Below, in pieces: positions 52,265-52,713 of a stretch of DNA of 64,000 nt. Every line of letters starts with the position of its first letter. Within the stretch, counting starts at the first letter, position 1. The notes under the pieces were generated by a model. That model had not been told where the DNA came from. It did not search any database and was given only the letters and a program-made list of their open reading frames with translations. Both the position numbers and the translations under genes were made by a program. Source of the DNA: Octopus vulgaris (Eukaryota); the NCBI GenBank assembly GCA_951406725.2, contig OX597814.1:139314001-139378000 (forward strand). The letters are read 5' to 3'.

Positions 52265-52376
52265 CTTTCGAGTGTAATTTCCTAGTAAATACAGTGTTTA
52301 TGGCATTAGAGAGGGGAAATTTCTTGAGAAAGGGATGAAACCGTTGCAAAACACCGTTAGCGGCAGCAGAAGCCAT
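52265..52376 (-). CDS. ATPAF2: ATPAF2/ATP12 coding exon 1 (mitochondrial targeting peptide-like N-terminus)
   Basis: ATG at 52376-52374. Translates MASAAANGVLQRFHPFLKKFPLSNAINTVFTRKLHSK (basic, no acidic residues). Ends AAAG|GTAT; 112 nt, phase 1, matching exon 2. Confidence 0.88.
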
Positions 52377-52569
52377 GTTGAAAAAAGAGAATTAGCAAGT
52401 TGGTTTGTAAAATATCATCTAATTGGTTAATCAGACCGGAAGTAGGCGTAGTAACCAATTGATGTTGGCGTTACATAGCAGGCGTAAAAATCTTCTAAGT
52501 GGAAGACGTTCATTCTTCCGTGTTTATGGTGTAAGTAAACAAACCTAGCAAAGTGCTTCTAAAAAAAAA
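52377..52569. promoter_or_regulatory. Bidirectional promoter and 5' UTRs shared by ATPAF2 and GID4
   Basis: 193 bp between divergent ATGs; ATTGG 52422-52426, ETS/GABP-type CCGGAAGT 52436-52443, CCAAT 52455-52459; CpGs retained; no repeats. Confidence 0.8.
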
Positions 52570-52713
52570 ATGCCGCAAAATATCATAGACCCTCCACCGC
52601 CCGAAAACCATCATCTTGCTGGAATGCCCACAAATCTTTTATACAACGGCTCTCGATTCAACGGACATCAAAAAAGCAAAGGCAATTCATACGATGTTGA
52701 AGTGGTTTTACAG
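52570..52713 (+). CDS. GID4: GID4 (GID/CTLH complex substrate receptor, Vid24 family) coding exon 1; later exons not found in the window
   Basis: ATG 52570; [48 protein letters not shown] then [25 protein letters not shown] matches vertebrate GID4 as I recall it; 144 nt, phase 0. Confidence 0.93.

Follow-up and report, generated by a model that had tools for sequence, protein, structure and literature searches.

ATPAF2 and GID4 are divergent neighbours in the Smith-Magenis region of the human genome (PMC1487180; PMC13236699), as had been correctly stated in an earlier reading of the octopus locus described here, made from the sequence alone. Both genes fall within a reported 17p11.2 Smith-Magenis deletion (PMC13236699). 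The human transcription start sites are 131 bp apart and the coding sequences 452 bp apart (PMC1487180), and the distance between coding sequences is 863 in Fugu and 2423 in chicken (PMC1487180; PMC2871058). The pair was included among 42 head-to-head pairs common to human, chicken, and Fugu, with human co-expression values of r = 0.21 (p 0.18) and r = 0.33 (p 0.03) and the entry 'CoFunction: No' (Li et al., 2006; PMC1487180). A later survey listed it in 8 vertebrates with a GO score of 0.23 (Davila Lopez et al., 2010; PMC2871058, Table S5). That survey also included Ciona, Daphnia, insects, nematodes, Nematostella, and Trichoplax, none of which is listed for the pair; the passages covered do not name Lottia, amphioxus, or sea urchin. 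No record of the pair outside vertebrates was found in the literature covered, which stops short of the list of ancient pairs in Supplemental Table S2 of PMC3514665. Likewise, the gene names were not found in the text supplements of PMC5572396, PMC9023564, PMC7817982, and PMC6292497, which may use other identifiers.

Larger classes of old gene neighbours have also been described. There are 595 ancient microsyntenic pairs (CAMPs), 593 of which were placed at the base of Bilateria (Irimia et al., 2012; PMC3514665). CAMPs are mostly arranged 5'-5' (54.8% in human and 68.6% in Lottia), their average co-expression is 0.30, and 448-492 of them are kept in Lottia, while arthropods, tunicates, and nematodes lose most of them (PMC3514665). 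One ancient 5'-5' pair, HSPD1/HSPE1, contains a mitochondrial chaperone gene and has a gap under 1 kb; its products form one machine, its co-expression reaches r = 0.81, and it is linked in nearly all species studied (PMC3514665). Moreover, 372 ancestral bidirectional promoters were described with CAGE data from amphioxus, mouse, and zebrafish, and in amphioxus 25% of gene neighbours are arranged head-to-head (Marletaz et al., 2018; PMC6292497). Sites for GABPA, NF-Y, and YY1 are typical of human bidirectional promoters (PMC3082894).

In Octopus vulgaris the same two genes were found in the same 5'-5' layout with a short gap. The window analysed is a 64-kb stretch (C1:139,314,001-139,378,000) of an octopus genome of 2.8 Gb. 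The ATPAF2 start codon lies at 52376 on the minus strand and the GID4 start codon at 52570 on the plus strand, which leaves 193 bp between them (52377-52569). Exon mapping thus confirmed the arrangement and the distance given by the sequence-only reading. The exons within the window are as follows:

52570..52713, plus strand: GID4 exon 1, 144 nt, residues 1-48, with a phase-0 donor
52265..52376, minus strand: ATPAF2 exon 1, 112 nt, with a phase-1 donor, its splice to exon 2 being visible in RNA
48445..48489, minus strand: ATPAF2 exon 2, 45 nt
47277..47422, minus strand: ATPAF2 exon 3, 146 nt, in which the Pfam ATP12 domain begins
42388..42485, minus strand: ATPAF2 exon 4, from protein match, splice sites, and RNA
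37420..37500, minus strand: ATPAF2 exon 5, from protein match and splice sites
35917..36029, minus strand: ATPAF2 exon 6, from protein match and splice sites
34101..34216, minus strand: ATPAF2 exon 7, from protein match and splice sites
32558..32710, minus strand: coding portion of ATPAF2 exon 8 to the TAG, from protein match and splice sites

The eight ATPAF2 exons run from 52376 down to 32558, comprise 864 nt with AG/GT sites, and end in TAG. Seven of them match a protein labelled Octopus vulgaris (P0154) at 98-100%, exon 2 having been placed separately. The N-terminus encoded by exon 1 is basic and acid-free and resembles a mitochondrial targeting peptide. P0154 contains the Pfam ATP12 domain (E=7e-41), and a genome-wide search with this domain returned one strong locus, within the window. 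With a domain above cut-off, best matches named ATPAF2, an intact frame, and a single locus, the gene was assigned as the ATP12/ATPAF2 orthologue. A pseudogene or artefact was ruled out by the intact frames, the canonical splice sites, and the presence of the joints in RNA.

GID4 has five exons, the first of which matches residues 1-48 of the octopus protein P0035 at 100%. After an intron of about 19 kb, exons 2-5 lie past the end of the window, at window-equivalent positions ~71683, 72998, ~79629, and 81382. A genome search for Vac_ImportDeg found two exons just beyond the window end and one strong locus for the family. P0035 itself matches Vac_ImportDeg at E=4e-62 and human GID4 structures at E=3e-106. 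The domain, the full-length human match, the single locus, and the splice from exon 1 to exon 2 identify the gene as the GID4/Vid24 orthologue. The branch of octopus GID4 is among the two longest in a 31-row tree, at 0.32 where the median is 0.053. The protein starts with Met-Pro, as many animal GID4 proteins do, an N-terminus of the residue class recognised by GID4 itself.

The introns at the locus are 1-19 kb long, and local repeats cover 36-69% of the four that were measured. Two intronic repeats of ATPAF2 (42751-43167 and 49840-50256) showed an RNA read depth of about 1,000-1,700-fold, with A>G and T>C as the commonest differences. These reads stem from many copies, so editing is indistinguishable from copy variation. 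Elsewhere in the window, Tc1/mariner-like transposase fragments with HTH and Transposase_1 domains (28317-29122, minus strand) adjoin a 420-bp AT microsatellite (27099-27517), and a 184-bp unit at 4336-4701 occurs in two tandem copies which are 97% alike, probably a SINE-like repeat.

RNA evidence was drawn from about 6% of each of three raw runs, chosen by species label, an organism label that differs from that of most of the DNA sources; 35, 39, and 52 reads aligned and the libraries look unstranded. All three runs have reads that end at 52713 and carry on into GID4 exon 2 (3, 8, and 7 reads), which bears out the claim of the sequence-only reading that the exon at 52570-52713 belongs to GID4. 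The junction consensus agrees with the start of exon 2 (L002:1507-1536) in 29-30 of 30 letters and was also found in one contig. On the other side, reads ending at 52265 continue into ATPAF2 exon 2 (19, 21, and 32 reads), and three ATPAF2 splice joints are directly visible in RNA.

Between the two genes, RNA cover fades by 52378-52399 on the ATPAF2 side and rises from about 52488 on the GID4 side, so that about 90 bp (about 52400-52487) are nearly without cover between the two 5' ends. In two of the three runs there is zero cover over 52400-52465, and in the third (X24) 1-2 reads. Because short reads stop before the true 5' ends and the libraries look unstranded, these edges are bounds rather than start sites. 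The start-site evidence consists of such reads, at depth 3-30, and of contigs, and a few records cross the gap. Contigs of two older runs, one of them deep, do span it; together with the spanning reads they could represent rare longer or overlapping 5' ends, or DNA. Overlapping 5' UTRs are not favoured as the main state, given the two runs without cover over 52400-52465. Even between start codons, the 193 bp lie well below the 1 kb between divergent starts by which bidirectional promoter pairs are defined.

The occurrence of the pair in other animals was examined in metagenome contigs scanned with GID4 exon 1, which gave 92 confirmed loci, 80 of them examined. With an ATPAF2 profile built from molluscs, ATPAF2 was found in three of the 80 listed loci (L022, L025, and L040), always upstream and on the opposite strand. 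Transcripts and contigs that are too short make up many of these loci; at least 3 kb of upstream sequence is present in 16, of which 2 contain ATPAF2. L022 and L025, whose nearest named proteins are from bivalves, have head-to-head gaps of 142 bp and 171 bp, and teleost-like L040, whose nearest named proteins are from vertebrates, has a gap of 658 bp. All three contain the same short ATPAF2 exon 2 as octopus. A tblastn check agreed, with no further ATPAF2 locus below E=0.08 in the 80 listed loci. At L035, a divergent ORF of 34 codons (1380-1667), basic, acid-free, and with a phase-1 donor, lies 160 bp upstream of GID4 and could, from its sequence, represent a third lineage's ATPAF2 exon 1. It was not counted as a pair, as no exon 2 was found within 1.6 kb upstream, where the contig ends. 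Neither ATPAF2 nor another gene was found at L062/L063 (annelid-like by guess, with 5.5 kb upstream) and L085, which are uninformative because octopus ATPAF2 exon 3 sits 5.1 kb away.

Further evidence came from accession numbers, compared for both genes in 14 mollusc species; this comparison shows adjacency rather than orientation, and for a few accessions the species was assigned indirectly, for example by prefix. The numbers are consecutive in six (Octopus vulgaris, Argonauta hians, Patella caerulea, Lottia gigantea, Haliotis rubra, and Littorina saxatilis) and within 10 in three (O. bimaculoides, O. sinensis, and P. vulgata). Four cases are ambiguous: in Liolophura, H. cracherodii, and H. 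asinina the numbers are far apart although both records lie on contigs of equal length, and in H. rufescens they differ by 84. In Nucella the two records lie on different contigs, a split which may be either real or an assembly matter; the tree groups Nucella GID4 with that of Littorina, which argues against a paralogue.

Other GID4 loci showed different neighbours. The partner search with Pfam covered the 284 longest upstream ORFs except for the 21 from L018, a near copy of L020, and thus 263 in total. In L018-L021, L024, and L029, the gene that GID4 faces, 274-315 bp away, encodes a mitochondrial acyl carrier protein (ACP); the layout was checked in L020 (280 bp), L024 (315 bp), and L029 (274 bp). 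Assignment of these loci as bryozoan-like (nearest Bugula and Watersipora) is firm for L018-L021 and weaker for L024 and L029. An arrangement of huntingtin (3' end), ACP, and GID4 is common to three divergent bryozoan-like lineages (L020:6700-10001, L024:2100-3944, and L029:2550-6604). In the octopus genome, C27 carries the acyl carrier gene; the bryozoan layout therefore does not occur here as a local variant.

In termite-, ant/wasp-, and other insect-like loci, GID4 faces a BTB_2 (KCTD-type) gene at 342 bp (L039), 413 bp (L051), and 1008 bp (L089). In these stretches (L039:7893-8433, L051:1354-1989, and L089:1645-3382) one promoter may serve two ubiquitin-ligase adaptor genes. An ING gene faces GID4 at 1123 bp in copepod-like L080 (3353-5265), and a PHD exon lies on the same side of GID4 in copepod-like L074 (5981-8537). 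In arthropod-like L032 and L045, same-strand SUN-domain and ZCCHC24-like genes were found upstream of GID4. Finally, in stony-coral L088 (whose exon 1 is that of Orbicella) a same-strand translational GTPase lies upstream, its last recognised exon 4.3 kb away; with this arrangement, the pair stays undated before Bilateria. When a break survives, the architecture appears to be kept more often than the partner. Pair loss in bryozoans would be a new instance, and loss in arthropods and tunicates would fit their known loss of most such pairs.

The GID4 loci offered some observations of their own. Fish-like L040 (2215-2274) and coral L088 (6886-6945) have a common intron inside GID4 exon 2, which is a single 168-nt exon in octopus (L002:1507-1674), bivalve, insect, and bryozoan loci. 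This distribution suggests that the intron may be ancestral and was lost in protostomes. A 348-aa ORF with a GIY-YIG domain, of a Penelope-like element (L017:4099-5142, minus strand), and an integrase fragment (L005:4892-5230, minus strand) were also found, as was a weak UBA_E1_SCCH match (L010:5188-5478, minus strand) which may belong, as an exon, to the gene that follows GID4 downstream.

The pair was therefore found in two lineages, molluscs and vertebrates, in a sampling which lacks amphioxus, hemichordate, echinoderm, polychaete, brachiopod, and chelicerate loci. It is not universal among bilaterians, GID4 having a neighbour other than ATPAF2 in the bryozoan-like, insect, and copepod loci as well as in coral. 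Like CAMPs, these are unrelated neighbours across phyla in a 5'-5' layout with short gaps: the two non-paralogous genes are adjacent in octopus, bivalve-like, and fish-like DNA, where CAMPs allow four or fewer intervening genes, and adjacency in Lottia is given by accession order. However, CAMPs are defined by at least four major lineages, where two were found here. As with the chordate ancestral bidirectional promoters, housekeeping genes are involved; most of those promoters were lost in vertebrates, whereas ATPAF2-GID4 was kept. ATPAF2-GID4 resembles HSPD1/HSPE1 in its likely ancient 5'-5' layout, its mitochondrial chaperone gene, and its short gap, but has neither the high co-expression, on human values, nor the linkage in nearly all lineages. 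As to one complex or pathway, the published values are 'No' for CoFunction and a GO score of 0.23, and the literature passages contain no tie between the products.

Survival of the pair in a coleoid had been regarded as surprising in the sequence-only reading. The genes do stay paired, but the surprise is lessened by Euprymna, which keeps 275 metazoan microsyntenies against 216 in scallop (Schmidbaur et al., 2022; PMC9023564). Those are likewise old linkages surviving rearrangement, although the blocks need at least three genes and no third was found here. The octopus pair differs from the human one in its shorter ATG gap, the lack of a CpG island (35% GC), and a DRG2 neighbour that was not found. 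As to a wider human block, a search for human flanking genes near the octopus pair found none, the DRG match being on another contig (C17). A search for GAT/TOM1L2 near the pair gave no match, and its positive control was likewise silent. The 150 longest of 321 flank ORFs gave only mobile-element domains and two weak matches, in a scan which short exons escape.

The candidate elements within the octopus gap are the following:

52377..52569, no strand: ATG-ATG interval, both 5' UTRs and the likely bidirectional core promoter
52422..52426, minus strand: CCAAT box facing ATPAF2 (ATTGG on the plus strand), candidate NF-Y site
52436..52443, plus strand: CCGGAAGT, ETS/GABP-type motif by its usual consensus, candidate site
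52455..52459, plus strand: CCAAT box facing GID4, candidate NF-Y site

As the motif patterns were picked after the sequences had been viewed, the shuffle counts are to be read accordingly: an outward ATTGG..CCAAT pair 10-40 bp apart, as in the octopus gap, occurred in 4 of 2000 shuffles and in 4 of 1056 tiles of the 204-kb neighbourhood, the same pair recurs in the L022 and L025 gaps (5 and 10 of 2000 shuffles, respectively), and the ETS motif of the octopus gap was reached in 6 of 2000. Among the gaps compared, the ETS motif is found in octopus only, and not in the bivalve gaps of L022 and L025. The outward CCAAT pair was not found in fish-like L040, which has two same-strand CCAAT boxes, nor in three bryozoan-like gaps (L020, L024, and L029). 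Apart from the start contexts and one CCAAT box, alignment among the three mollusc gaps is poor. Their ATPAF2 start context is AA[C/A/G]ATGGC, which resembles the YY1/TISU start that accompanies very short 5' UTRs (PMC2518114). The motifs typical of bidirectional promoters (NF-Y, GABPA/ETS, and YY1) are therefore present in the octopus gap as sequence matches, and one promoter shared by ATPAF2 and GID4 is plausible. The sequence-only reading had also pointed to the lack of repeats between the start codons. This is true of the gap, with 0% repeat cover, yet 36% of the 193-bp tiles in the window are equally free of local repeats, and the repeat-free gap was rejected as a sign of constraint.

The observations are probably best explained by two housekeeping genes which have shared one short bidirectional promoter since the bilaterian ancestor and were kept together by closeness rather than by joint function. 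To judge from the motifs, NF-Y and an ETS/GABP factor would hold one nucleosome-free stretch open, from which polymerase would be launched both ways. The divergent starts would lie within about 100 bp, as bounded by RNA, and ATPAF2 would have a very short 5' UTR with its YY1/TISU-like start context. A break inside a stretch so tiny against 2.8 Gb would be rare and would leave one gene without its promoter; such a break would be harmful, so the pair would persist. After a break that survived, GID4 would often come to face another housekeeping gene. Protein function would play no part in this persistence, as the partner swaps and the weak co-regulation suggest. Inheritance from the bilaterian ancestor, which the sequence-only reading had proposed, is likely and, with the pair present in gastropods and bivalves as well, is the most probable history; against it, the genes are unlinked in most non-mollusc invertebrates sampled, a sample which includes fast-rearranging groups. 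Because two phyla share the same divergent partner, descent is far likelier than chance. That molluscs and vertebrates joined the genes independently, both being prone to head-to-head pairing, is highly improbable. It would account for the absence of the pair from any third lineage sampled and of human flanking genes near the octopus pair, and GID4 did acquire another close divergent partner at least three times, head-to-head layouts being common (25% in amphioxus; PMC6292497). However, even if both genes lay on one ancestral chromosome, the odds of meeting the same partner twice are roughly estimated at ~1 in 1,600 for each gene; among ~1,000 human head-to-head pairs this would give fewer than one match by chance, compared with 593 pairs at the bilaterian base, and the groups without the pair include arthropods, which, like tunicates and nematodes, lose most such pairs (PMC3514665).

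The sequence-only reading went further and held that the promoter couples ATP-synthase assembly to the GID/CTLH ligase. Selection of a shared promoter to match ATP-synthase assembly with the GID/CTLH substrate receptor, for example in metabolic switching, would be consistent with persistence in two distant phyla and with a bryozoan-like substitute partner, ACP, that is also a mitochondrial respiratory-chain gene. In addition, RanBP9 pull-downs include mitochondrial proteins such as Atp5po, though not ATPAF2, in the available passages (PMC11994786), and HMGCS1 is a GID4 target under mTORC1 inhibition (PMC12687426). Yet two of the three substitute partners (BTB/KCTD and ING) belong to families known as non-mitochondrial, and flies are without Gid4 (PMC11933467). 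Human co-expression (0.21, not significant, and 0.33) is near the CAMP average, neighbour co-expression is damped at the level of proteins (PMC5572396), and blood eQTL alleles lower GID4 while raising ATPAF2 (PMC5527106). Moreover, the main text of a 2025 GID/CTLH review contains neither 'mitochondri' nor 'ATPAF2' and names DDX21/DDX50, HMGCS1, and ARHGAP11A as GID4 substrates (PMC12687426). With partners swapped in three lineages, weak co-expression, and opposite eQTLs, the coupling claim found no support and is unlikely. The least probable account is that the ancestral pair consists of two one-way core promoters, back to back with no shared element and held only by the small target for breaks. 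Each CCAAT box does face its own gene, and the poor alignment of the three mollusc gaps and the weak co-expression would be expected; but about 90 bp is less than the length of one nucleosome, so one open region would be shared, and the outward CCAAT pair recurs in three molluscs.

One mitochondrial partner in three swaps would be well within chance if bidirectional partners often include mitochondrial genes. It is very unlikely that the slot facing GID4 was selected for a respiratory-chain assembly gene (ATPAF2 in molluscs and vertebrates, NDUFAB1 in bryozoans). If true, an NF-Y/ETS/YY1 promoter would link respiratory-chain biogenesis with the CTLH Pro/N-degron receptor, and a role of GID4 in mitochondrial proteostasis would be over 550 million years old. 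The pair would matter more only if GID4 acts on respiratory-chain assembly. Under the preferred reading of a short shared promoter kept by closeness, the extension of the vertebrate pair to molluscs adds one more bidirectional promoter likely dated to the bilaterian ancestor, such pairs numbering hundreds. GID4, with four divergent partners, offers a natural experiment on whether promoter architecture or partner identity is kept, and the mollusc gaps of 140-190 bp are small enough for complete dissection.
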